The notes under the pieces are model-generated. The model saw only the letters and a program-made list of their open reading frames with translations. It was not told the DNA's origin and searched no databases. 64,000 nucleotides of DNA from Dictyostelium discoideum (lineage: Eukaryota), in assembly GCA_000004695.1 (NCBI GenBank), contig CM000151.3:6336001-6400000 (forward strand). Direction: 5' to 3'. Below, piece after piece: positions 2,037-51,050 of this stretch. The first letter of the stretch is position 1, and the number at the start of each line of letters is the position of its first letter. The position numbers and the translations under genes are program-made.

Positions 2037-3086
2037 GGATGATTCTGTGATTTTTTAATTTTATTTCATTTTTTAAAAATTTTGTTTTTATTTTTTTTTT
2101 TTTGATCAATTCTAGATGAAATAATATTTAAAAAAAAAACATTTTGGAAAAAAAAAAAAAAAAAAAAAAGATATATAAAAAAAAAAAAAAAAAAAAAAGA
2201 TTAAAAGTTTTTTTGTTTTCAACAATTCTAATTTTTTATTATTTATTTTTTTTTTTTTTTTTCGGATATCCATGTTACCAAGATTATAAATATAAGGGAT
2301 TCTATTTTTAATAAATATATACTCTTCTGTTAAAAAAAAAAAATACAAAAAAAAAAAAAATAAAAAAAAAATAAAAAAAAAATAAAATAAATTAAAAAAA
2401 AGAGGTTTTATTTTTAGTAACTCTAGATATATATTTATTAAAAAAAAAAAAAAAAAAAAAAAACCCAAAAAAAAAAAATTTAAAAATAAATCAATACCCT
2501 CAATTAAATTTCTAAAATAAAAATAGTTTTTTTTTTATTTTAATCACTAATAATCCTTCTTGTTCCACAAACAAAACAAATAAATGTTTTTCTATATATA
2601 TAAATAATATAGTTGTTTAGATATTGTAAAAATTAATTTTTTTATTCACATTTATTTGTAATTTATTTTTATTTTTAGTTTTTATTTGTTTATGTGTATT
2701 TCATTTGTTTTTCTTTTCAAATAATTAAATCTTTCATAACAAAATAAAATAAAAAAAACACCCCTTTTCAAAATTAGCAATCCATTGTTTTTCCTTTTAC
2801 ATTGGTTTGTCAAAAAACACAACACTCTTTTTTTAATTTTTTATCACCCAATTGTACTATTACTCATCAAATAATTCCATTTTTAATAATTTACAAATAA
2901 AATTTATAAAATATAAAAATAATAACATTAAAACAAAAAAAAAATAAACAAAGATTATTTTTTTTTTCCAAAAACTATTATTTCAAAGATTTATTTTTTT
3001 TTTTTTTGTTTTTGTTTTCCAAATAATTAATTCTTTTTTTTTTTTGTTTCCATAAAATTAATAATAGTTTTATATAAAAATTAAAA

Positions 3087-5665
<2,579 letters not shown>

Positions 5666-28450: not shown

Positions 28451-28518
28451 ATAAAACAATTTAAAAAACTGATTCGAGTATTTCCGGAACTTCGGATTTT
28501 GATATAAATACTAAAAAG

Positions 28519-28591
28519 TGGTTCTACTGAGACTCGAACTCAGATTACAGGATTCAAAGTCCTGGGTGCTAACCAATTACACTATAAAACC
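28519..28591 (-). tRNA. tRNA-Gln (anticodon UUG)
   Basis: The reverse complement is GGTTTTATAGTGTAATTGGTtAGCACCCAGGACTTTGAATCCTGTAATCTGAGTTCGAGTCTCAGTAGAACCA. It folds into a 7-bp acceptor stem with one G-U pair. The anticodon stem is CAGGA/TCCTG with loop CTTTGAA (anticodon TTG). The T-loop is GTTCGAG. Confidence 0.75.
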
Positions 28592-28898
28592 TTATGATTT
28601 TCAATATTTTAAAAATAAGACATCGTTTAATTTTCACAAAAAAACAAACAACAACAACAATCTCTTTTTTTGATTATTTCATTTTTCATATAAAAAAGAC
28701 TTAAAAAACAAATAAATAAATAAATAAACTATTTTAAAAAGCCATCTTTTTACTTTATTGTAATTTATTATTTGTTTCGTTTTGAGAATTTTGCGTAGCA
28801 AAATTTTCAAAAAAAAAGCAAAAAATAATCAGATCGAAAAAAACAAACAACAACAACAATCTCTTTTTTTGATTATTTCATTTTTCATATAAAAAAGA

Positions 28899-28978
<80 letters not shown>

Positions 28979-29053
28979 GGAACCAAGTTAATTAGAAAAT
29001 TTCCAGATTTTTAACTTTTTAAAGAAAAATAAAAAAGATAGAAAGAAAATAAA

Positions 29054-30388
29054 ATGAAAATCACAAACAACACCACAAATATTAAGCAACACAAATGCCT
29101 ACAAAAAATAAGCGAAATTGTGGATAAAACTCAATTAAAAAAAAAACAATTCAAATACGTCATAAACATCAATCACGAACCAGACGATAAAATAAAAAAA
29201 GATTTAGAAAAAAGTTTGGACAAAAAAGATGTTTTAATCAAAAGTAATAATACATTCAAAATTCTCACAGACAGTATTAGTACAGTAATCTATTTTGTAA
29301 ATATGTTTGATGCAGAATTAAAAGGACAATTTATAACCACTATAAGACCAAAAAATATGTATACAGATTTTGATTGGTATAAATCACTCACAGAAATAGA
29401 ATGGGTAATAGAAAATGAAGGATGTAAACTAATTAAATCAGAAATTAAAGGCGAAACTCTAATTATCAAAACAGTGAAAAGAGTCGTAGAAGAATTTGAC
29501 ACTATCATTGAACTAGACAATCTAACATTAATTGGACACTCCAACAAAGGATGGAGAGATCAAACCTCATTACCAGAAAATCAAGAAGAAAACAAAAATA
29601 AAAAACAATCAGATGAACAACAACCACAATCTACATCAGAACAAATACCAAAACAAGGAAAAAGAACAATCATTATCCCACCAATCACATCCTCATCTAA
29701 TGATAAAACATTTATGGCCCTAGATGATACAGCTCAAAAGGTAATAGAAGCATCACTAGAAAACGTAGATGAACTAACAAGAATAGAGAATGAGATCAAT
29801 ACACAATCGATAAACAATCAAGAAATTAAAACAAAATCAGAAAAACCTATCGAACCACCATCTCCATACAATACACCAATAAAACAACACGGCGAAACAA
29901 AGGGACTAACAACGGAAGAAAAACTTAGAGAGGCAAATGATATCTTCGACTTCACCAGCCCAAACACTGATGCAATAAGAAAAATAGAATTCCCACTTTC
30001 AATCCCTTCAAATCAATGGTTCTTCTCCTCTCCAATAAAACATATCATGAGTTTCAGCCCAACCTATGGTACACCATCGAAAATTATCGATTCACCAAGT
30101 AAATTGTTAAACACACCAAAAAAGAAACAACAAGACAAAACAAACAAGACCAACAAAACACCAGTCAAACCAAAATTGGGTGAATATGGACAAAAAAGCA
30201 TAAAAACAAAAATGGATGAAGATATAGACAACTTCAACAAGGAAATTCTAAAACAAATCAATAAATCAAAAAACCCCACAAACACACAAGACCAACAACA
30301 CAACGAACAAAGTAAAGATCAGTTAGAAGACAAAATAAACCAGAAACTTCAAAAGGTAGATAAAAATCTACCCCAAATAAAACTATAA
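29054..30388 (+). CDS. TRE5-like retrotransposon ORF1 (444 aa)
   Basis: The domain order is shared with TRE5-A ORF1 (48158..49522). NNTFKILTDSISTVIYFVNMFDAELKG..IRPKNMYTDFDWYKS aligns with KNKFKILTDCRTQVIKYSNVFNGVLKG..IKPKKIFKTFNWEKS. A basic, Q/K-rich C-terminal half follows. Confidence 0.55.
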   Translation: MKITNNTTNIKQHKCLQKISEIVDKTQLKKKQFKYVININHEPDDKIKKDLEKSLDKKDVLIKSNNTFKILTDSISTVIYFVNMFDAELKGQFITTIRPKNMYTDFDWYKSLTEIEWVIENEGCKLIKSEIKGETLIIKTVKRVVEEFDTIIELDNLTLIGHSNKGWRDQTSLPENQEENKNKKQSDEQQPQSTSEQIPKQGKRTIIIPPITSSSNDKTFMALDDTAQKVIEASLENVDELTRIENEINTQSINNQEIKTKSEKPIEPPSPYNTPIKQHGETKGLTTEEKLREANDIFDFTSPNTDAIRKIEFPLSIPSNQWFFSSPIKHIMSFSPTYGTPSKIIDSPSKLLNTPKKKQQDKTNKTNKTPVKPKLGEYGQKSIKTKMDEDIDNFNKEILKQINKSKNPTNTQDQQHNEQSKDQLEDKINQKLQKVDKNLPQIKL

Positions 30389-30389
30389 A

Positions 30390-30640
30390 GAAAAACACAA
30401 TAAGAATAGGTGTTTGGAACGTCCAAGGATCCAACACCATCCAATCTGCCAGCATAATAAACACCGTTTTAGACAACAACAAGCTGGACGCAGCACTTCT
30501 AACTGAAACAAATATAAAAACAAATAAAATTTACTCAATAAATCAACAATATAAAAACAAAATAACACACCACGCACCAATTGATAAAACAGGACAAGGG
30601 GTGTCACAAATCATCATCAACACCCGCAATAGAACTTCCT
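30390..30640 (+). pseudogene. Truncated ORF2 N-terminus (APE-type endonuclease) of the TRE5-like element
   Basis: RIGVWNVQGSNTIQSASIINTVLDNNKLDAALLTETNIK..APIDKTGQGVSQIIIN parallels the TRE5-A ORF2 N-terminus MTWNCQGCSTIKS..ISILTETNLK. The reading frame ends after about 85 codons and runs into poly(A) at 30686..30740. Confidence 0.5.
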
Positions 30641-30684
30641 AAACATCTCAAAAAATACAATAATTCACTCAGTACTTTCTATAA

Positions 30685-30742
<58 letters not shown>

Positions 30743-31654
30743 CAAGTTAATCAGAAAAATAAAAAAGATAGAAAGAAAATAAAATGAAAATCACAAACAA
30801 CACCACAAATATTAAGCAACACAAATGCCTACAAAAAATAAGCGAAATTGTGGATAAAACTCAATTAAAAAAAAAACAATTCAAATACGTCATAAACTTC
30901 AATCACGAACCAGACGATAAAATAAAAAAAGATTTAGAAAAAAGTTTGGACAAAAAAGATGTTTTAATCAAAAAGACCCTGTAAAAAAAAAAAAAAAATA
31001 AAATGAGATCTAGCATCTCAAGGAGAAGCAAATAATAATTGCGTTATCCAATTCAAAAAAAAAAAAATCGTTTAATTTTCAAATTTTTTAAAATAAATTT
31101 ATAGAATTGATTGGAATTATTTGAATATGCAGAAGTAAAATTTAAAAGAGACTTCAATCTTAGACCCAAATAAAAGGTTGTACAATATATCTATTGTACT
31201 TTTTTCATGATGATATTTAATAGTTAAACCGGTTTATATATTAAGTATTAAGAAATTTTTTTTTTATTTATTTTTTTATTTTTTTTGGGTTGAATAAAAA
31301 TAAAAGTTCTTTTGGTAATTAAAAAGGTTATTAATAGTCTTAATTATTGAATTTTTTAATGTTGGGCAAATTTTAAATATTTTACAAAAAAAAAAAATTT
31401 AAAATATTTTTTTTTTTTTTTTAAAAAACTTTTCTTTGATTTGTTAAATTATTAGAAATTTTTTGATTTGTTTGATAATATTTTTTTTTTTTTTTTTTTT
31501 AAAAAATAGATATTTTAACAAATCAAAAAAAATCTCGCAAAAGAAGCCCAAATTTTAAAGATAAAAAAAAAAAAAAAAAATTTATTTTTAAAATTTTTTT
31601 TTTTTTTTTTATTTTGTAAAAAATTCTAAAAATAAATAGAAATATATAAATAGA

Positions 31655-42456: not shown

Positions 42457-42494
<38 letters not shown>

Positions 42495-43259
42495 AGTAGT
42501 TGGTGTTATATGAGCAGTATGGTCTGAAGTGTTCCGGGATGTTTATGGTCATGAGTTTCGAGTTCCAGTTGTAGTGTTATCGTTGAATTTTATTTGGTTT
42601 CTTCTGTACCATATCGATTCCATAATGGCTCCTATAAGATTTGATGAGAATGGTGTGAGTAGTTTTCCGAGAACTTTTTCGCTCCATGGACCGCGGTAAG
42701 TGTTGTTAGAGTCTTTACAGACCTTTTGATAGATTGAGTCGATATCCTGTTTTATTGATTTGCATTCGAAGAAGATGTGCATAGACGACTCTTCTTCTTT
42801 ACATGAGTGGCAATTCTCCCCATGGTGTTTTGGAAGTGCCTTGAGTAGATACCTCCATGCTAAGTCTCTTCCTTTGATAGTTGTGATTGATCTGGCTTCT
42901 CTAAATGGTAGAATTGGGTGATTAATGTTCTTTTGAATCAGTTTTTGACCTGTTGTTGGCTGGTGTTTGTTCCATCCCTTGTATTTGATATCCATCATGT
43001 TTCTATAGATTACTTTTAATTTTTGTTTGTTTTTGTATTTGGGTTTGACTTGGTTTAGTTTGAGAGTTATTCGCTCTCTTGGGTGGTGCAACAACTTCCA
43101 GGCTTTCCAGCATTTGATGTGAATCCTTGATAGTGAGTTTTCTTTTTCCGACTTCCAGACTTCCATATGTGGAGGGCAGTTCTGGTCGTCTTTTTCTCTG
43201 AAGTATTGTTCGTATATCCATGCTTTCTGGGCATTGGATCTGGTTGCCATATTCCAGAG
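42353..43259 (-). mobile_element. TRE5-A copy, 5'-truncated within ORF2, with an internal deletion of about 185 bp near the ORF2 3' end. Poly(T) at 42455..42490 is the oligo(A) tail. Upstream (AAT/TAA)n C-module tail at 42361..42454.
   Basis: The fragment is more than 95% identical to the 3' region of the full-length TRE5-A at 44455..45560. The track ORF 42549..43250 is near-identical to ORF2 residues MATRSNAQKAWIYEQY..IWYRRNQIKFNDNTT. The 185 bp between ccagttgtg| and |gtagtgttatcg in the full copy are missing here. Homology ends at ..ccatattccagag (43259), 45 bp before tRNA-Ser. Confidence 0.7.
42549..43250 (-). pseudogene. TRE5-A ORF2 C-terminal fragment (233 aa)
   Basis: Direct protein identity to the C-terminal region of the 1182-aa ORF2 at 44617..48165. 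A different C-terminus, ..NDNTTTGTRNS*, is created by the internal deletion. Confidence 0.7.
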
Positions 43260-43304: not shown

Positions 43305-43386
43305 GACATCGTAGCAAAGTGGTCTAATGCGTCTGACTAGAAATCAGATCCCTTCGGGGGCGCAGGTTCGAACCCTGCCGATGTCG
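43305..43386 (+). tRNA. tRNA-Ser (anticodon AGA), 82 nt with a long variable arm
   Basis: The sequence is GACATCGTAGCAAAGTGGTCTAATGCGTCTGACTAGAAATCAGATCCCTTCGGGGGCGCAGGTTCGAACCCTGCCGATGTCG. The 7-bp acceptor stem is GACATCG/CGATGTC. The anticodon stem is TCTGA/TCAGA with loop CTAGAAA. The long variable arm TCCCTTCGGGGGC is typical of class II tRNAs. The T-arm is GCAGG-TTCGAAC-CCTGC. Confidence 0.8.
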
Positions 43387-43478
43387 ACTATATCTTTTAT
43401 CCTTAATCCAATTTTTTTAATCAAGATATTGTTAATACCGCTTTTAGGTAAAAAAAAAAAAAATCAAGATATTGTTAC

Positions 43479-44044
43479 ATACCATCCATCTTCCAACATA
43501 TCAACCACATATCACATCAAAAAGGTAGAAATACACTATTCAGATTTTTCTCAAGGTCACTTCCTGGAATCAACTATGAACGTAACGTACCATGCAAAAT
43601 CTGTAACAATATAATCCGTGACCCATACACTCACCTTTTTATAGACTGTATGCAAGTAAAAGAAATAGAAAACATAATAATTTCAACATTCAACAATCTC
43701 TCATTATTCAAGATCAGAAATTGGGATCTCAATTCACTAGATATTAGCAAAACAAATAAAAAAGAAAGAATCTACCCAAATTTAATCGGCATAATTATAC
43801 ATCAACTATGGAGAATAATTTGTCACAAACTATTCAATCAAGACGAATCTAAATCTCCACCCTCATTTGATCCAACATTAATTGAAAAAGAACTAACCAA
43901 CTTAATTAAAATAGAGAAATTCATTTTAATAAAGAAGATCGAAAGGAATGAAACAATATACAAATTAAATAACAGAGACCAATTAATAATCAACTTCAAC
44001 ACATCATGGCATAACCCGAACACTCCAAACCCAATTCCATTATA

Positions 44045-44080
<36 letters not shown>

Positions 44081-44085
44081 AAGTA
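43479..44085 (+). mobile_element. TRE3-like non-LTR retrotransposon, 5'-truncated copy ending in oligo(A) at 44048..44083, about 90 bp downstream of tRNA-Ser
   Basis: It encodes the ORF2 C-terminus ..HQKGRNTLFRFFSRSLPGINYERNVPCKICNNIIRDPYTHLFIDC..LIGIIIHQLWRIICHKLFNQDESK..NPIPL*. This is homologous to the minus-strand fragment at 27456..28367 and to the inverted piece at 27238..27420. A poly(A) tail is present. A short direct repeat, atcaagatattgtta, flanks the upstream side. Confidence 0.6.
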
Positions 44086-44186
44086 GTAGTAATCATAATA
44101 TAACCAAAAATATCAACATATAACAATATAAAAATTTAAAAATTTAAAAATCTAAAAATTTAAAAATGTAATAAAATATAACAATA

Positions 44187-44283
44187 TACCGCTTTTAGGT
44201 AAAAAAAAAAAAAATCAAGATATTGTTACACCGCTTTTAGGTAAAAAAAAAAAATAATCAAGATATTGTTTACACCGCTTTTA

Positions 44284-44327
<44 letters not shown>

Positions 44328-44365
44328 ACCGCTTTTAGGTAAAAAAAAAAATCAAGATATTGTTC
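44187..44365 (+). repeat. Reiterated mini-insertion array: four tandem units of [..caccgcttttaggt + (A)11-45 + (a)tcaagatattgtt(t)aca]. One further unit lies at 43419..43478 immediately after the tRNA-Ser terminator.
   Basis: Direct reading. The 15-nt tag ataccgcttttaggt, followed by poly(A) and then the same 14-bp direct repeat atcaagatattgtt, occurs 5 times. The first copy of the direct repeat lies directly after the tRNA-Ser T-run (ttttttt aatcaagatattgtta). Confidence 0.6.
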
Positions 44366-44425
44366 CTTTTTTTTTTTTTTTAATAACATCACTCAATTTG
44401 AGTGTGTTCTAGGAGAGTTTATTTG

Positions 44426-44459
<34 letters not shown>

Positions 44460-44582
44460 CTTTTTTTCTTGTTATTCTTATTTTTTTTTTTTTTATTATT
44501 ATTATATTATTATTATTATTATTATATTATTATTATTATATTATTATTATTATTATATTATTATTATTATTATTATTGTTAT

Positions 44583-44616
<34 letters not shown>

Positions 44617-44621
<5 letters not shown>

Positions 44622-47600
44622 AGTAGTTGGTGTTATATGAGCAGTATGGTATGAAGTGTTCCGGGATTTTTATGGTCATGAGTTTCGAGTTCCAGTTGTG
44701 GCTGAATTTTTCGAGTCTTCTTTTTATTGATGCGGTCCGATTGATTGACTCTCGGTTATCAGTGCATCTTAGTTCTTGACGTAGTTGTTTTTCTACTATC
44801 TTTCTTGTTCTATCCCATTCGGCATCTCTCGCTTTTTTTATTTTATGAATTATTTGGTTCTCTGTTATTATTGTAGTGTTATCGTTGAATTTTATTTGAT
44901 TTCTTCTGTACCATATCGATTCCATAATGGCTCCTATCAGATTTGATGAGAATGGTGTGAGTAGTTTTCCGAGAACTTTTTCGCTCCATGGACCGTGGTA
45001 AGTGTTGTTGGAGTCTTTACAGACCTTTTGATAGATTGAGTCGATATTCTGTTTTATTGATTTGCATTCGAAGAAGATGTGCATAGACGATTCTTCTTCT
45101 TTACATGAGTGGCAATTCTCCCCATGGTGTTTTGGAAGTGCCTTGAGTAGATATCTCCATGCTAAGTCTCTTCCTTTGATAGTTGTGATTGATCTGGCTT
45201 CTCTAAATGGTAGAATTGGGTGATTAATGTTCTTTTGAATCAGTTTTTGACCTGTTGTTGGCTGGTGTTTGTTCCATCCCTTGTATTTGATATCCATCAT
45301 GTTTCTATAGATTACTTTTAATTTTTGTTTGTTTTCGTATTTGGGTTTGACTTGGTTTAGTTTGAGAGTTATTCGCTCTCTTGGGTGGTGCAACAACTTC
45401 CAGGCTTTCCAGCATTTGATGTGAATCCTTGATAGTGAGTTTTCTTTTTCCGACTTCCAGACTTCCATATGTGGAGGGCAGTTCTGGTCGTCTTTTTCTC
45501 TGAGGTATTGTTCGTATATCCATGCTTTCTGGGCATTGGATCTGGTTGCCATATTCCAGAGTTCCAGGCCTCCAATTTCATAGTCTCTTCTGCTCCTTTC
45601 TTTTGAGATAGCCCACCTGTCCCCTTTGAATAACATGTTGGCATTAACGTTCTCCAGTTTCTTTATGTCATTTATTTCGTTGATGTATAGTTGGAATGTT
45701 AGTTGGGACAGCAGGTATGATTTGAGGATTGTGATTCTACCTTTTAGCGTTGATGACACGCTCGAATAGCATTTTGTGAGGTTTTCCAGTTTGTTCACCG
45801 TATCATCTACTTTGCTTATTACACCTTTGCGGTTGAAGAAAAAGCCAAGATATCTTTCTTCTTCTTTCGCCCCAATTGTCTTATATTTGGTCTTTATCTT
45901 TGGGTTTTTAGTGATGCACACACATTTATTATCGTTTATTTTTGCTGCTGTGGCTTGGCAAAATTTTATAACTTTCATATCCATTTTATCTGCGTCATCT
46001 ATGTTACTGGCTAGTGTGACTGTGTCGTCTGCATATTGTCCAATCTTCATCGAATTGTTCTGATTGAGTTTTATGCCTATTATGGTATTGTCTTTTCTTA
46101 TTGATGTTGATAAGCATTCACATACTATAGCGAAGAGAGTTGGTGAAATTGGGTCGCCCTGTTTTGTACCTCTTCCTGCTCTGAAGGATTCAGAGAGTTG
46201 TCCATTTACCATGACCCTTATGTTGGTGTTCGTTAACATGCTTAGTATTGTGTTTGTTATTTTCCGAGGGAACTTTAGATGGTTTAGAGTCCTTATTAAC
46301 GCTTTATGAGATATTGAATCGAAGGCTTTTTCGAAGTCATAAAAGGTGATTATCGTGTTTCTATCACTCTTTTCCATTGCTAAATCCAAAGCTATAATGT
46401 TGTTGTGGAGTAGCCTTCCTGGTATAAAACCGTTCTGGTACTTTGAGATTATGTTTGGCAGGATTTTTAGTATTCTATTGTTGATTATTTTTGAGTAGAT
46501 TTTGTAGTCTACGTTGAGTAACGTTATTGGTCTTCTGTTTGAGATTTCCAAGACATCCCCTTTACCTTTGTATATTGATGTAAGGATACCGTTCTTGAAT
46601 TCTGTTGGAATTTCATTGTTTAAAAAGAAGTTGAATAGTTCTGTGAGGATTGGAATTAGTTTGTGTTGGTGGATTTTATAGAATGAAGATGTTATTCCAT
46701 CTTCTCCTGGTGATTTACCTTCTGCTATCTTTTCTATTGCTAGCTTAACCTCATATTCTTCGATTCTGTCTTCCATCTCTGTTAATTTTTTTTTATCTAT
46801 TGGTGGGTTCCAGGTGCTTAGAAGTTCTGTATGTGTTTCTTGGTCGCATTCTTTCTCTTTGAAGAGTGTCTCGTAATATTTTCTGAAGCAATCTGTTATT
46901 TCTTTTTGTTCTGTTTCGATTTCTCCATTGGATGGGTTCTTTATTCTGTGAATCTGGGAGCTCGAGTCTCTTTTTTTAAGAATAGATGTAAGGAGATTTG
47001 ATGCTATTTCTTTATTGTTGATGTAGTTGATTGAGCTTTTGATCATTCTGTCTATTCTTTCTTCTTCTTGAAGTATTGTTATTTCGTTCGATATTGTTTC
47101 TTTTTCATATTTGTTTTTTGTTTTTGTGTGTTCATTTGCTAGATTTGATAGCGTTTTTTTTCTCTCTAGTATTCTTTTCTTTTCTGTTGTAATGCATTGT
47201 TTTTTTATTTTTTTTTTGAACTTAATCCAGTATTCCGTTATGTTAAGGTTTTTTCTTTTGGTTTCCTGGTAGTGGTCGATTATTTTTTCTATCTTTTTTA
47301 TTGTTTTATCTTCTTTAATTATTATTGAGTTCATTTTCCATAGGGGTGATTTGTATATTTTTGTGAAATTTGGTATTTTGAAATCCATCACTACTATGTT
47401 ATGGTCTGATTTGTTTATTTTATCTATTATCTTGTACGAGTGATTGAGTTGGTGCATCTTTGTTGATAAGAATGTTCTATCGATTAGTTTATCTTTGAAG
47501 GTTGTTTTAGTTGTTGAATTTGGTAGTATTTCGGTGAGTCCTACTTCCATCATTAGGAATTCTATTGTTTCATTTTCTGTGAATTTTCTCTTATCGGATG

Positions 47601-48048
47601 ATCCATCTTTGAACTTGATTTTTGCATATTTGTTGATGTTAAAGTCACCAGTAACTATGTCTGCCTGTTCTAGATCTTCAAGGGAAATATTGTTTGAAAA
47701 CCATCCTTTTCTTCTGTCATATGAGGCTGGTGCATAGATGCAAATTATGTTGATTTCCATATTGTTTAGAATTGCAGTAAATTTTAAGATTCTGCCTTCT
47801 TTTTCTTCCAAGTTTTTAATTTCTATTTGTTCTAGGTGATTTATTGCCATTACTCCTTTTCCTCTTGCTTCTTTTCCTTTTCCTCCTGTTGAGTAATGGT
47901 TTTTGATTTGCGCTAGATTTTGATCCTTTTTTAGATTTGTTTCTGTTAGTATTGATATATCAGGTTTTATTAGGTTAATTGTATTTTTTGTCTGATTCAT
48001 GCTTTTGATTGTTGAGCAACCTTGGCAATTCCAGGTCATTATTTTTAT

Positions 48049-48051
<3 letters not shown>
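44617..48051 (-). CDS. TRE5-A ORF2: APE endonuclease, reverse transcriptase and C-terminal Cys-His motif. The ATG is at 48051..48049; the track ORF extends to 48165 through a poly-K reading of the A-tract.
   Basis: The N-terminus MIKIMTWNCQGCSTIKS.. is an endonuclease domain. The RT motifs ..ITFYDFEKAFDSISH.. and ..QYADDTVTLA.. (YxDD) are present. The C-terminus has the CCHC-like motif HSCKEEESSMHIFFECK. Total 1182 aa as listed in the track. Confidence 0.75.
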
Positions 48052-48098
<47 letters not shown>

Positions 48099-48125
48099 TT
48101 TTTTTTTTTTTTTTTTTTTTTTTTT

Positions 48126-48157
<32 letters not shown>

Positions 48158-48163
<6 letters not shown>

Positions 48164-49522
48164 AAATGAGACAGATGGAAGTATGTCTTGGAGTACTTTG
48201 GGCAATTTGTCTCTTAGTGCTGCTTCCATTAGATCTGATTCTTCCTTTGTTATTTTAGTTGGAGTTTTGTAAGGTGTTGATATTTCTTGGTGATTAGTTG
48301 TTGGGTTTGGAGATGAGTTGGATCTTTTTCTTTTTACTGTCTCTGGGGTTGCTGGAGATTCTGGATTTTGGATAGGTGACATTGTTTGTCTTTTTTTGAT
48401 TGAGGCTAACCTTGGGGTTTCCTTCTTTTTTTGGTTATTTATTTTTTCTTCAAAAATTCTGTTCTCTTCTTCATTTTCGAACATCTTTCTTACCACTTCT
48501 AATGCTTCTTCATCTTCAGTTAACTCCATTTTCCTTTTCTCTTTGCTGTCAACACTATATGTTACTGTTATTGGTGGGACACGAAGTACTTTTCTCTTTT
48601 CAATATTGTTTATTGTGTTTGTCGTTTCTGTCGTTGTGGTTGTTGTAGTTGCTCTAATTGTTGTGGGTTTTTTATTTTCAATTTCGTTTTCCTTTACTTT
48701 TTCGTTTTTGCTCTTGTCTTTGATGTTGTCATTATTGATTTCTTTATTATTTTCTTTTCTGTTTTCTATTTTGTTTTTGTTGTTATTTTTTGATTCGCTA
48801 GTGTTTTTATGATTGGATTCTTCTTTTGATTTTATGTTTATTCTTGTGTTTTCCTTTATCTCGGGATTTGGTAGTTCCGTGATTTTTGAATTTTCTGAGA
48901 TTTCGTCTTCGATTTCCTTATTTGTTTTTCTTTGATTTTTTGTTTCTTCTGTTGTAGTGAGGAATAGTATTGTTATGTGTTTACAATGTATTAGCTGGTC
49001 TTTGTGCTCTGGACTGATAATTGAGTTGAATGAGTGTATTATCAGGTTTTCACCTAAATTATCTAATTTGATTATTTCCAGTCCTTCTTCATGCAATGTT
49101 TTTTCTACTATGTCCATTGATTTTTCCCAGTTGAATGTTTTGAAGATCTTTTTTGGTTTTATTATTGCTCTGTGAACTCCTTTTAGTACTCCGTTGAAAA
49201 CGTTAGAGTACTTGATTACTTGAGTTCTGCAGTCAGTTAGGATTTTGAATTTATTCTTACTTATTATTATCTTATCATCTCCTTGTAAATGAATTTCCAA
49301 TTCTGCTTTTAAGTTGTTGGAAATCTCATCTGGGATATTGATCATGAATTTATATTGTTTTAGTTCAATTTGAGTGTGGTATATTGCTTCGCTTATTTTA
49401 TCAAGTGTTCTGTACGTATTTTTTAAATATTTGAACTTTGTTCTGAGTTCATTTGATTTCTTGATTTTATCTGCCAATGTTTCTGTTGATTCTGTCATTA
49501 TTGTATTTGCCAATTTATTCAT
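48158..49522 (-). CDS. TRE5-A ORF1 (454 aa)
   Basis: A complete ORF. It overlaps the track ORF2 start by 8 nt and is followed by a T-rich stretch (A-rich on the element strand) of about 105 nt at 48052..48157. Confidence 0.7.
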
Positions 49523-49599
49523 TTCTTTTTTTTCTTTAAAATCTTTATTCGACTTTAAAAATTTAAAATTCTGGAAATTCCCTGAAAGAATGTTTTCGG

Positions 49600-49670
<71 letters not shown>

Positions 49671-49674
<4 letters not shown>

Positions 49675-50928
49675 TCTTTTTTTTATATGAAAAATGAAAT
49701 AATCAAATAAAAAAAGTGTTGTTGTTGATGTTTTTTCTCTTACTGATTATTTTTTCCTTTTTTTTTCAATTTTGCTTCGCAAAATTTTCAAAAAAAAGAA
49801 AAAAATAAATTACAATAAAATAAAGAAATAAAGTAGTTTATTCTAAGTGTATTTTATTTTATTTTTTTTAAGTCTTTTTTTTATATGAAAAATGAAATAA
49901 TCAAATAAAAAAAGTGTTGTTGTTGATGTTTTTTCTCTTACTGATTATTTTTTCCTTTTTTTTTCAATTTTGCTTCGCAAAATTTTCAAAAAAAAGAAAA
50001 AAATAAATTACAATAAAATAAAGAAATAAAGTAGTTTATTCTAAGTGTATTTTATTTTATTTTTTTTAAGTCTTTTTTTTATATGAAAAATGAAATAATC
50101 AAATAAAAAAAGTGTTGTTGTTGATGTTTTTTCTCTTACTGATTATTTTTTCCTTTTTTTTTCAATTTTGCTTCGCAAAATTTTCAAAAAAAAGAAAAAA
50201 ATAAATTACAATAAAATAAAGAAATAAAGTAGTTTATTCTAAGTGTATTTTATTTTATTTTTTTTAAGTCTTTTTTTTATATGAAAAATGAAATAATCAA
50301 ATAAAAAAAGTGTTGTTGTTGATGTTTTTTCTCTTACTGATTATTTTTTCCTTTTTTTTTCAATTTTGCTTCGCAAAATTTTCAAAAAAAAGAAAAAAAT
50401 AAATTACAATAAAATAAAGAAATAAAGTAGTTTATTCTAAGTGTATTTTATTTTATTTTTTTTAAGTCTTTTTTTTATATGAAAAATGAAATAATCAAAT
50501 AAAAAAAGTGTTGTTGTTGATGTTTTTTCTCTTACTGATTATTTTTTCCTTTTTTTTTCAATTTTGCTTCGCAAAATTTTCAAAAAAAAGAAAAAAATAA
50601 ATTACAATAAAATAAAGAAATAAAGTAGTTTATTCTAAGTGTATTTTATTTTATTTTTTTTAAGTCTTTTTTTTATATGAAAAATGAAATAATCAAATAA
50701 AAAAAGTGTTGTTGTTGATGTTTTTTCTCTTACTGATTATTTTTTCCTTTTTTTTTCAATTTTGCTTCGCAAAATTTTCAAAAAAAAGAAAAAAATAAAT
50801 TACAATAAAATAAAGAAATAAAGTAGTTTATTCTAAGTGTATTTTATTTTATTTTTTTTAAGTCTTTTTTTTATATGAAAAATGAAATAATCAAATAAAA
50901 AAAGTGTTGTTGTTGATGTTTTTCCTCT
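49671..50928 (-). repeat. TRE5-A A-module tandem array: 6 complete 198-bp units plus one 70-bp partial unit (about 6.35 copies)
   Basis: The unit start taagtctttttttt recurs at 49671, 49869, 50067, 50265, 50463, 50661 and 50859. Units are nearly identical. The last unit diverges after gatgtttttcctctt at about 50928. Confidence 0.85.
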
Positions 50929-50976
50929 TCTATTGTTCCTTAATAAATTTGTAATATGAGTTATTTTTTCATCAAA

Positions 50977-51050
50977 GGGACTATAGTTTAGTTGGATATA
51001 ACGACCGGCTACGAACCGGTAGGTCTCAGGTTCGACCCCTGATGGTCTCG
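50977..51050 (+). tRNA. tRNA-Arg (anticodon ACG)
   Basis: The sequence is GGGACTATAGTTTAGTTGGATATAACGACCGGCTACGAACCGGTAGGTCTCAGGTTCGACCCCTGATGGTCTCG. The acceptor stem GGGACTA/TGGTCTC has 2 G-U pairs. The anticodon stem is ACCGG/CCGGT with loop CTACGAA. The T-arm is TCAGG-TTCGACC-CCTGA. Confidence 0.7.

Follow-up and report, generated by a model that had tools for sequence, protein, structure and literature searches.

A probable full-length TRE5-B retrotransposon with a tandemly repeated 5' module upstream of tRNA-Arg(ACG) in Dictyostelium discoideum

Introduction

A complete retrotransposon faces a tRNA-Arg(ACG) gene on chromosome 2 of Dictyostelium discoideum AX4, and the locus raises the question of which family this element belongs to and whether its repeated 5' module sets it apart from other copies. 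The DNA analysed here (the window, 64,000 nucleotides) corresponds to positions 6,336,001-6,400,000 of this chromosome. In an earlier note the element was taken for a full-length TRE5-A with an unusually high number of A-modules and for a candidate active master copy. Our sequence comparisons indicate that it is very probably a full-length copy of TRE5-B, a non-LTR retrotransposon of the L1 clade. As such it is an ordinary copy which has been catalogued previously, and a repeated 5' module is normal and variable in this family. For TRE5-B, Szafranski 1999 and Glockner 2001 are reportedly the sources. The name used by Spaller 2016 is Dd_TRE5-B, and TRE5-A, TRE5-B and TRE5-C are the only TRE5 families of D. 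discoideum (PMC5911963).

Results

Locus and insertion site

The three tRNA genes of the window are GlnUUG-8, SerAGA-3 and ArgACG-3, whose coordinates differ from those on chromosome 2 by a constant offset of 6,336,000; subtracting it from the position of ArgACG-3, chr2 6386977-6387050 (S2 Table, PMC5391098), gives the window coordinates of tRNA-Arg. The tRNA-Arg(ACG) gene was recovered by ARAGORN, and the element lies head-on to it as had been described, spanning positions 44367-50930 of the minus strand (AX4 chr2 6,380,367-6,386,930; 6564 nt). The components of the element and of its insertion site are listed in Table 1. The 3' end had been placed at 44455, a position which belongs to one of the A-runs inside the 3' UTR; the true end is at 44367.

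Table 1. Features of the element and of its insertion site, in window coordinates.
Feature	Position	Strand	Basis or value
tRNA-Arg(ACG), integration target (ArgACG-3 of AX4 chromosome 2)	50977..51050	+	ARAGORN
Target-site duplication, 5' copy, 11 bp, AAGGAACAATA	50931..50941	-	direct reading
5' monomer array, six complete units (one of 197 nt, five of 198 nt) plus one truncated to 72 nt	49672..50930	-	TRF
Internal oligo(A), A69 run, 69 nt	49603..49671	-	direct reading
Non-repeated leader preceding the ATG of ORF1, 80 nt	49523..49602	-	direct comparison
ORF1, 454 aa, no stops	48158..49522	-	translation
A-rich spacer from the ORF1 stop codon to the first ORF2 ATG, 106 nt, 103 of them A	48052..48157	-	
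ORF2, 1144 aa, no stops; APE-type endonuclease, reverse transcriptase, C-terminal Cys/His motif	44617..48051	-	
3' UTR, 235 nt: A33, (ATA)n microsatellite, more A-runs, 45-nt unique terminal segment	44382..44616	-	
Terminal RNA hairpin AACACACUCAAAUUGAGUGAUGUU	44385..44408	-	MFE -9.2 kcal/mol, z = -3.1
Poly(A) tail, A15; final two A may be part of the duplication	44367..44381	-	
Target-site duplication, 3' copy, 11 nt, AAGGAACAATA, after the poly(A) tail	44358..44368	-	direct reading

The first inserted base is the G at 50930, position -47, which leaves 46 bp between element and tRNA-Arg; the first base matching the monomer is at -48. The spacing of 48 bp given previously is corrected accordingly. 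Position -47 falls inside the published range of TRE5-B integration distances from tRNA genes, 34-82 bp upstream (PMC5006619, Table 1). In eight other copies 38-51 nucleotides intervene before the tRNA gene, counted at the printed junctions, and the target-site duplications vary from copy to copy. [quoted passage not shown] The spacing and orientation seen here therefore fit TRE5-A too, and this feature does not discriminate among the TRE5 families.

Coding regions

Both ORFs were open on full translation, in agreement with the initial description. In a cluster look-up, which yielded no element family name, ORF1 proved identical to DDB_G0276195 (UniProt Q9GQ50, 'Group-specific antigen'), and a Pfam search found no domain in it. 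The ORF2 frame, +1 relative to ORF1, stays open across the A-rich spacer, which measures 70-82 nt in other copies. ORF2 matches RVT_1 of Pfam (E 5e-37) and, weakly, Exo_endo_phos (E 0.0018); its best relative in the PDB is the LINE-1 endonuclease (E 7e-4), and a CX2CX7HX4C motif, CHSCKEEESSMHIFFEC, can be read from the translation at its C-terminus. A homology search with ORF2 returned 100% identical D. discoideum proteins among its matches, all of them unnamed entries ('hypothetical protein') by which no family is decided.

The features of the L1 clade are present, namely APE endonuclease, reverse transcriptase, Cys/His motif, A15 tail and 11-bp duplication. TRE5-B likewise has two ORFs, with endonuclease, reverse transcriptase and zinc-finger regions in ORF2, and the targeting, orientation and ORF2 layout of TRE5-A (DRE) are those of the present element. 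The general class first proposed, a full-length TRE5-type non-LTR retrotransposon targeted to tRNA genes, with open ORFs and canonical distance and orientation, is upheld.

The 5' monomer array

By TRF the tandem array extends over 49654-50929, with a period of 198, 6.4 copies, 99% matches and a score of 2531; this and the A69 run read directly from the sequence substantiate the reported array of more than six copies with an internal oligo-A. When the units were dissected, units 2-6 proved to be mutually identical, and unit 1 carries one substitution and is 1 nt shorter at its 5' end. All nine copies examined start at the identical monomer position. The internal oligo(A) is 33-44 nt long in seven other copies, and the leader is 100% conserved across other TRE5-B copies.

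The monomer is 79% identical, and homologous, to a genuine TRE5-A A-module in the window (28639-28832), and direct comparison shows that the leader and the 5' portion of the TRE5-A B-module are homologous. In TRE5-A, too, one full unit is followed by a partial unit, oligo(A) and a leader. As an A-module type monomer is common to both families, TRE5-A and TRE5-B can be confused on their 5' ends alone; it is the 3' end and ORF1 which separate them.

Assignment to a TRE5 family

The window contains a genuine TRE5-A.2 copy (28637-31066), located upstream of tRNA-Gln, against which the element could be compared. In TRE5-A a 290-bp B-module is duplicated in the 3' UTR, giving the arrangement AB-ORF1/ORF2-BC (PMC3159450, PMC5006619), and the 3' terminus is a 134-bp C-module whose hairpin carries T15, C26, A35 and C38 (PMC3159450; numbering from the 3' end). 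The TRE5-A.2 copy has both: its B-module is duplicated, 30742-30973 repeating 28976-29250, and all four C-module positions fit its terminal sequence ...GAGATCTAGCATCTCAAGGAGAAGCAAATAATAATTGCGTTATCCAATTC, ending at 31054. [quoted passage not shown] We had considered the 3' A-rich region as a C-module with two oligo(dA) tracts, a reading rejected once a genuine C-module had been located in the TRE5-A.2 copy. The 45-nt unique tail finishes in ...CTCTCCTAGAACACACTCAAATTGAGTGATGTTATT at 44382. This type of 3' end is found in eight further copies, and the same 3' architecture is present in L001, L003, L006, L007, L008 and L010.

The second distinguishing feature is ORF1. The TRE5-A ORF1 in the window has 444 aa, begins MKITNNTTNI and carries Ile at residue 10, while that of the element begins MNKLANTIMT, with Thr at this position. 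Three primers that have been published for the ORF1 of endogenous TRE5-A, Rep-190, Rep-109Q and Rep-157Q, each match the window only within the TRE5-A.2 copy (30050-30069, 29498-29526 and 29891-29918, respectively), and none matches the ORF1 of the element at up to three mismatches. In a global alignment the two ORF1 proteins are identical in 126 of 504 columns (25.0%; z = 12.6 against shuffles), and homology is evident over the N-terminal ~140 aa; default BLASTP between the two gave nothing significant.

That the element is a full-length TRE5-A.1 is thus hardly conceivable. [quoted passage not shown] The array belongs to another element family, and the TRE5-A identity has to be given up.

We assign the element to TRE5-B from what has been published about the families, by elimination, and from the degree of ORF1 identity. 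[quoted passage not shown] TRE5-C is known from 879 bp only, without a full-length consensus (PMC5006619); its 3' end is a C-module sharing ~78% identity with the TRE5-A one, and its AX4 copies are only partial. The tail of the element is unrelated to the C-module and, in distinction to TRE5-C, AX4 contains the element as a full-length copy. Because the element has neither 3' module, has an ORF1 25.0% identical to that of TRE5-A, and TRE5-C has no full-length copies, TRE5-B is the family which fits. No defining difference from TRE5-B is apparent. The length of 6564 nt less three monomers (594 nt) is 5970 nt, within 1 nt of the published TRE5-B consensus of 5971 nt, although length alone is no proof.

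An origin from TRE5-C or from an unnamed TRE5 family is improbable. It could be argued from the fact that TRE5-B is known here through descriptions rather than an aligned reference, and from the existence of diverged relatives in other isolates, such as L002 with 77% amino acid and L009 with 88.6% nucleotide identity. Against it stand the C-module end of TRE5-C and the lack of full-length AX4 copies, the description of three TRE5 families in all, and an ORF1 identity equal to the published TRE5-B value. L002 was itself considered as a candidate TRE5-C and rejected, its 3' end being the TRE5-B tail rather than a C-module.

Monomer number in other copies and assemblies

Eight other copies carry 1, 1, 1, 2, 3, 5, 5 and 9 units, a range within which the six units in the window do not support the suggestion of a high copy number. 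Units are identical inside one array and different between lineages. L005, L006 and L007 have a common unit variant and a common ORF1 sequence and carry 3, 1 and 5 units, respectively. In L008 all five units carry an array-specific loop inversion, absent from sister copies with identical ORF1.

The orthologous insertion is present, as L004, in a second, long-read assembly (GCA_054883475.1). The junction is identical and the unique flank shows zero substitutions over 5 kb, yet the array has 9 units as against 6, and ORF2 is split by a DNA transposon of 5.1 kb with terminal inverted repeats. Over ORF2 nt 286-1822 (1.5 kb) the two versions differ by 5 substitutions, 4 of them private, and A-runs are shorter in L004. 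The first unit of the window copy is locus-specific and common to L004, and the window copy has 2 private ORF2 alleles. A Pfam search found nothing in the region of the 866-aa ORF of the DNA transposon, nor in a TRE3-like ORF fragment.

The proposal of an active master copy is affected accordingly: the ORFs are indeed open in the window, but the interrupted ORF2 of the orthologous copy weakens the idea. The 9 units and the split ORF2 at the same insertion make both the unit count and the status of 'intact master copy' uncertain, and one reference assembly appears to be poor ground for such a designation. According to Spaller 2016 AX4 has only one intact full-length TRE5-B, whereas at least three copies in the other assembly have both ORFs open, which counts against our reading.

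The difference between 6 and 9 units could be an assembly error and not biology. It is a real possibility that six units and an uninterrupted ORF2 are in part products of Sanger-era assembly, the real locus resembling the long-read version. The identical flanks of a copy so different in unit number, A-runs, ORF2 substitutions and the 5.1-kb insertion would be explained in this way, and an array of identical 198-bp units exceeds a Sanger read, which would make a reliable count impossible. The window copy is not a pure consensus, however, as its locus-specific first unit and private ORF2 alleles indicate, and true differences between laboratory lineages or errors of the newer assembly are conceivable as well.

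Discussion

Origin of the array length

Since the two assemblies give 6 and 9 units for one insertion, and units agree within arrays and differ between lineages, arrays most likely lengthen and shorten as DNA, through unequal exchange among identical units or slippage during their replication. A transcription start in an inner unit could only shorten an array. It is unlikely that monomer number is fixed solely at retrotransposition, from a multi-monomer master through first-unit transcripts, and remains static thereafter: the 3, 1 and 5 units of L005, L006 and L007 would fit transcripts begun in different units of one master, but the disagreement at one insertion and the inversion shared by the five units of L008 and lacked by its sister copies speak against it, and a gain of units is impossible through retrotransposition alone.

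Going beyond array change at the DNA level, it might tentatively be proposed that arrays are unstable enough to alter length in place on laboratory time scales, tuning transcription as in mouse L1, and that either the AX4 reference misrepresents the locus or gene conversion and a recent insertion of the DNA transposon in a sister lineage have reshaped it. Beyond correct annotation the significance of the locus is small; the variable arrays and the disagreement of the two assemblies offer a modest lead on the evolution of promoter regions in a targeted LINE-like element.

Proposed mechanism and comparison with mouse L1

Target-primed reverse transcription would have inserted TRE5-B 47 bp upstream of tRNA-Arg(ACG) and generated the 11-bp duplication. 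Targeting is most likely similar to that of TRE5-A, with the ORF1 protein recognising the Pol III TFIIIB/TFIIIC complex on the tRNA gene; in vitro binding of TRE5-B ORF1 to TFIIIB subunits has been reported.

The A-module of TRE5-A is a Pol II promoter, and the 198-bp monomer of TRE5-B may, judged by its sequence, be a candidate promoter as well. As every copy examined opens at one monomer position, transcription from this internal promoter would probably begin at the monomer start, much like mouse L1 with its monomeric 5' UTR. In mouse L1 this region consists of arrays of promoter-bearing monomers of the A, Tf and Gf types, each about 200 bp long. The layout resembles that of TRE5-B, with a tandem array of variable length and ~200-bp period whose last monomer is truncated, then a leader outside the repeat, and ORF1 after it, but the monomer sequences are unrelated and the analogy is functional only. 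The tRNA-proximal end of DRE is reportedly described in Marschalek et al. 1992 as 'one or multiple A modules followed by a single B module'; should this hold, the reiteration of A-modules has been on record since 1992. A literature search for 'multiple A modules' found no paper stating this.

At the 3' end of TRE5-B a family-specific hairpin and oligo(A) stand where TRE5-A has its B and C modules. In the L002 relative this terminal hairpin shows one compensatory change, from U-A to C-G.

The element in front of tRNA-Arg

The minus-strand retrotransposon lying head-on to tRNA-Arg(ACG) is an ordinary copy of TRE5-B and is already catalogued; its ORF1 is an exact match to DDB_G0276195 (UniProt Q9GQ50, strain AX4) and its ORF2 is 100% identical when compared with D. 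discoideum proteins. Subtracting 6,336,000 from the chromosome 2 coordinates of GlnUUG-8, SerAGA-3 and ArgACG-3 (PMC5391098, S2 Table) gives the positions of the window's three tRNA genes, which identifies the window as AX4 chr2:6,336,001-6,400,000.

Retrotransposon parts and tRNA genes of the window
Feature	Position	Strand	Remark
tRNA Gln-UUG	28518-28591	-	
TRE5-A.2 element	28637-31066	+	46 bp upstream of tRNA-Gln(UUG)
5'-truncated TRE5-B fragment	42490-43259	-	ORF2 nt 2490-3434, 98.7% identical
tRNA Ser-AGA	43305-43386	+	
ORF2, 1144 aa from first ATG, zero stops		-	after A-rich spacer
A-rich spacer, 106 nt	48052-48157	-	between ORF1 and ORF2
ORF1, 454 aa		-	after 80-nt leader
80-nt leader		-	between A69 run and ORF1
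A69 run	49603-49671	-	next after monomer array
tRNA Arg-ACG	50977-51050	+	

The 198-bp array, the ORF1 and the stop-free ORF2 described in the earlier note are real. Tandem Repeats Finder detects a 198-bp period (6.4 copies, 99% matches, score 2531) at 49654-50929, composed of six full units and a truncated unit of 72 nt; units 2-6 are identical, and unit 1 deviates by one substitution and slightly at its 5' end. Relative to ORF1, ORF2 is read in the +1 frame. It has a strong RVT_1 match, a weak Exo_endo_phos match, an N-terminus most similar, among solved structures, to the LINE-1 endonuclease, and a C-terminal CX2CX7HX4C motif.

The proposed 3' limit at 44455 had to be moved, as it falls in an internal A-run. 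At five loci of assembly GCA_054883475.1 (L001, L003, L006, L007, L008) related copies all end in ...CTCTCCTAGAACACACTCAAATTGAGTGATGTTATT plus 14-15 A, and the sequence preceding the 5' end is repeated directly after the A tail. The ...CTCTCCTAGAACACACTCAAATTGAGTGATGTTATT-type tail of the window copy stops at 44382 and its A15 tail at 44367, and the target-site duplication AAGGAACAATA is found at 50931-50941 and again at 44358-44368. From the tail end and the duplication at both flanks the element is therefore 44367-50930, 6564 nt. The first inserted base, a G at 50930, is mismatched to the monomer, perhaps because it was added without a template. The distance of 48 bp to the tRNA gene was right within one base; the element starts at -47 from tRNA-Arg position +1 (50977), with 46 bp between.

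At 106 and 69 nt, the two internal A-runs of the window copy are much longer than those in seven copies of GCA_054883475.1 (70-82 and 33-44 nt). The ORF2 frame stays open across the 106-nt run and would encode poly-Lys there.

Family assignment

TRE5-A.1 has the layout AB-ORF1/ORF2-BC, with a second copy of the 290-bp B-module in the 3' UTR and a 134-bp C-module as the 3' end; TRE5-B is without 3' B-module and C-module, and TRE5-C has the C-module and no 3' B-module (PMC3159450; PMC5006619). The element at tRNA-Gln is a genuine TRE5-A.2 and served as TRE5-A reference within the window. It is composed of 1.35 A-module units, oligo(A), B, ORF1, a small ORF2 remnant, a second B, the C-module and an A-tail, and is flanked by the 15-bp target-site duplication ATCGTTTAATTTTCA. 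Oligo(A), leader and ORF1 start occur twice, which is the B-module duplication. Its 444 aa ORF1 starts with MKITNNTTNI and hence has the Ile-10 stated for TRE5-A ORF1 (PMC3159450), and its 3' end ...GCGTTATCCAATTC shows T15, C26, A35 and C38 (from the 3' end), all positions mutated in the same work.

As the decisive family test we used the published primers for endogenous TRE5-A ORF1 (PMC5391098, S1 Table). Rep-190 (30050-30069) and Rep-109Q (29498-29526) match the TRE5-A.2 without mismatch and Rep-157Q (29891-29918) with one; no further site is found for any of them across the window at up to 3 mismatches. The element at tRNA-Arg, which the earlier note had called a TRE5-A with B- and C-modules, fails every TRE5-A test (primers, Ile-10, B-module duplication, C-module positions). 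Its 3' UTR is short, 3' B-module and C-module are absent, and a search found neither its leader nor its ORF1 start duplicated within the element. In global alignment the two ORF1 proteins are 25.0% identical (z = 12.6 over shuffles), mostly within the first ~140 residues, and 25% is the value published for TRE5-B against TRE5-A (PMC3159450). Only three TRE5 families are described (PMC5911963), and AX4 has zero full-length TRE5-C copies (879-bp partial consensus) and 25 TRE5-B copies, one of them intact and full-length (5971-bp consensus; PMC5006619 Table 1). As the TRE5-A tests failed, ORF1 identity is 25%, and the only third family has no full-length copies, we assign the element to TRE5-B and not TRE5-A, on published family descriptions and ORF1 identity. 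Incidentally, taking three monomers away from 6564 nt leaves 5970 nt.

The monomer array

The TRE5-B unit is ~79% identical to the TRE5-A A-module. Both share the conserved palindrome GAAAATTTTGC-NNN-GCAAAATT and the same layout of full unit, first ~70 nt of the next unit, oligo(A) and leader. DRE (TRE5-A) was reportedly described by Marschalek et al. in 1992 with 'one or multiple A modules'. The copies of GCA_054883475.1 carry one (L001, L003, L006), three (L005), five (L007, L008) or nine full units (L004), and the diverged L009 copy of GCA_054859355.1 carries two. Six units, earlier regarded as a high number, are normal for the family, since other copies carry 1-9.

In all copies the element begins at an identical point of the monomer, (G)AGTAAGAG / GAAGAG, in keeping with transcription that starts at the monomer boundary under an internal promoter. 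Units are identical inside each array and different between lineages, with two substitutions common to L005, L006 and L007. In L008 (5826-6821) all five monomers have the palindrome GAAAATTTTGC-TTC-GCAAAATTTTC with a perfect stem, the 3-nt loop being inverted relative to the GAA of other copies; this inversion is array-specific and homogenised over the whole array.

Array length probably changes via unequal exchange or replication slippage between identical units; a transcription start in an inner unit can only shorten the array. The 5' UTR of mouse L1 is monomeric too, and its array behaves alike, an analogy and not membership. The sequence itself shows an ORF2 of the L1 type, a poly(A) tail, a constant orientation and spacing relative to tRNA genes, target-site duplications varying from copy to copy, and a 3' hairpin (MFE -9.2 kcal/mol, z = -3.1) that is conserved, the relative at L002 having one compensatory change (U-A to C-G). 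Judging from work on TRE5-A, integration would proceed via target-primed reverse transcription, ORF1 would contact TFIIIB on the tRNA gene, monomers would act as Pol II promoters, and the hairpin would be recognised by the ORF2 protein, by analogy with the hairpin of the C-module.

The orthologous locus in another assembly

L004 shares with the window an identical tRNA-Arg, 46-nt spacer and unusual first unit, and 5 kb of unique flank show zero substitutions, homopolymer lengths being the sole differences; on sequence comparison it is the ortholog of the window locus. Its array has nine full units versus six, its A-runs are shorter, ORF2 nt 286-1822 differ by five substitutions (4/5 private to L004), and ORF2 is split at nt 287 by a 5.1-kb element that bears terminal inverted repeats (CACAGCAAAGAAAAA...) and an 866-aa ORF. 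Collapse or mosaic assembly of the Sanger-era reference inside the repeat is one possible explanation, but the window copy has two private ORF2 alleles and is hence not a pure consensus; alternatively, the two lineages may truly differ. Under either explanation, the unit number and the status of 'intact master copy' need to be treated with caution. Both ORFs are indeed open in the window, but ORF2 is interrupted in L004, and both ORFs are open also in L001, L006 and L007, so that intactness is not unique to this locus. The sole mild lead is that the monomer array and the element interior are unstable, or misassembled, between two assemblies.

The 5.1-kb insertion (L004 8721-13828), absent from AX4, belongs to a family of DNA transposons whose terminal inverted repeats read CACAGC(A/G)AAGAAAAA...; no Pfam match was found. 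MITE-like derivatives of ~760 bp lie in L001 (9463-10224) and L003 (11592-12351), each inside TRE5-B, and that of L001 holds a tRNA-like (A/B-box) sequence.

Neighbouring and related elements

The TRE5-B fragment at tRNA-Ser(AGA) has its 5' end 46 bp upstream of the gene, lacks nt 3181-3351 and ends without the usual 45-nt tail. From 35 bp downstream of tRNA-Ser, at 43421-44364 (+), five TCAAGATATTGTT alternate with five ...CCGCTTTTAGGT(A)n ends, one of which belongs to a ~750-bp 5'-truncated non-LTR piece (ORF end at 44045). The pattern resembles a series of TRE3-type insertions into a single target, most of them cut down to ~15 nt plus oligo(A). Only ~86 bp separated tRNA-Ser from tRNA-Arg prior to all insertions.

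Diverged TRE5-B-like subfamilies are found at L002 2552-8638 and L009 5965-~11700 of GCA_054859355.1, another D. discoideum assembly. L002 is degenerate (ORF2 77% aa identical), has only a truncated monomer and ends in a TRE5-B-type tail and hairpin. L009 has both ORFs open (ORF2 88.6% nt identical) and two 196-nt monomers, and a stretch behind its ORF2 shares ~90% identity with the L002 tail. TRE5-B lies directly in front of an older TRE5-A at L001 10421-10770 (5'-truncated, with C-module) and L007 12121-12420 (starting with an A-module); these are TRE-TRE tandems known from the literature.
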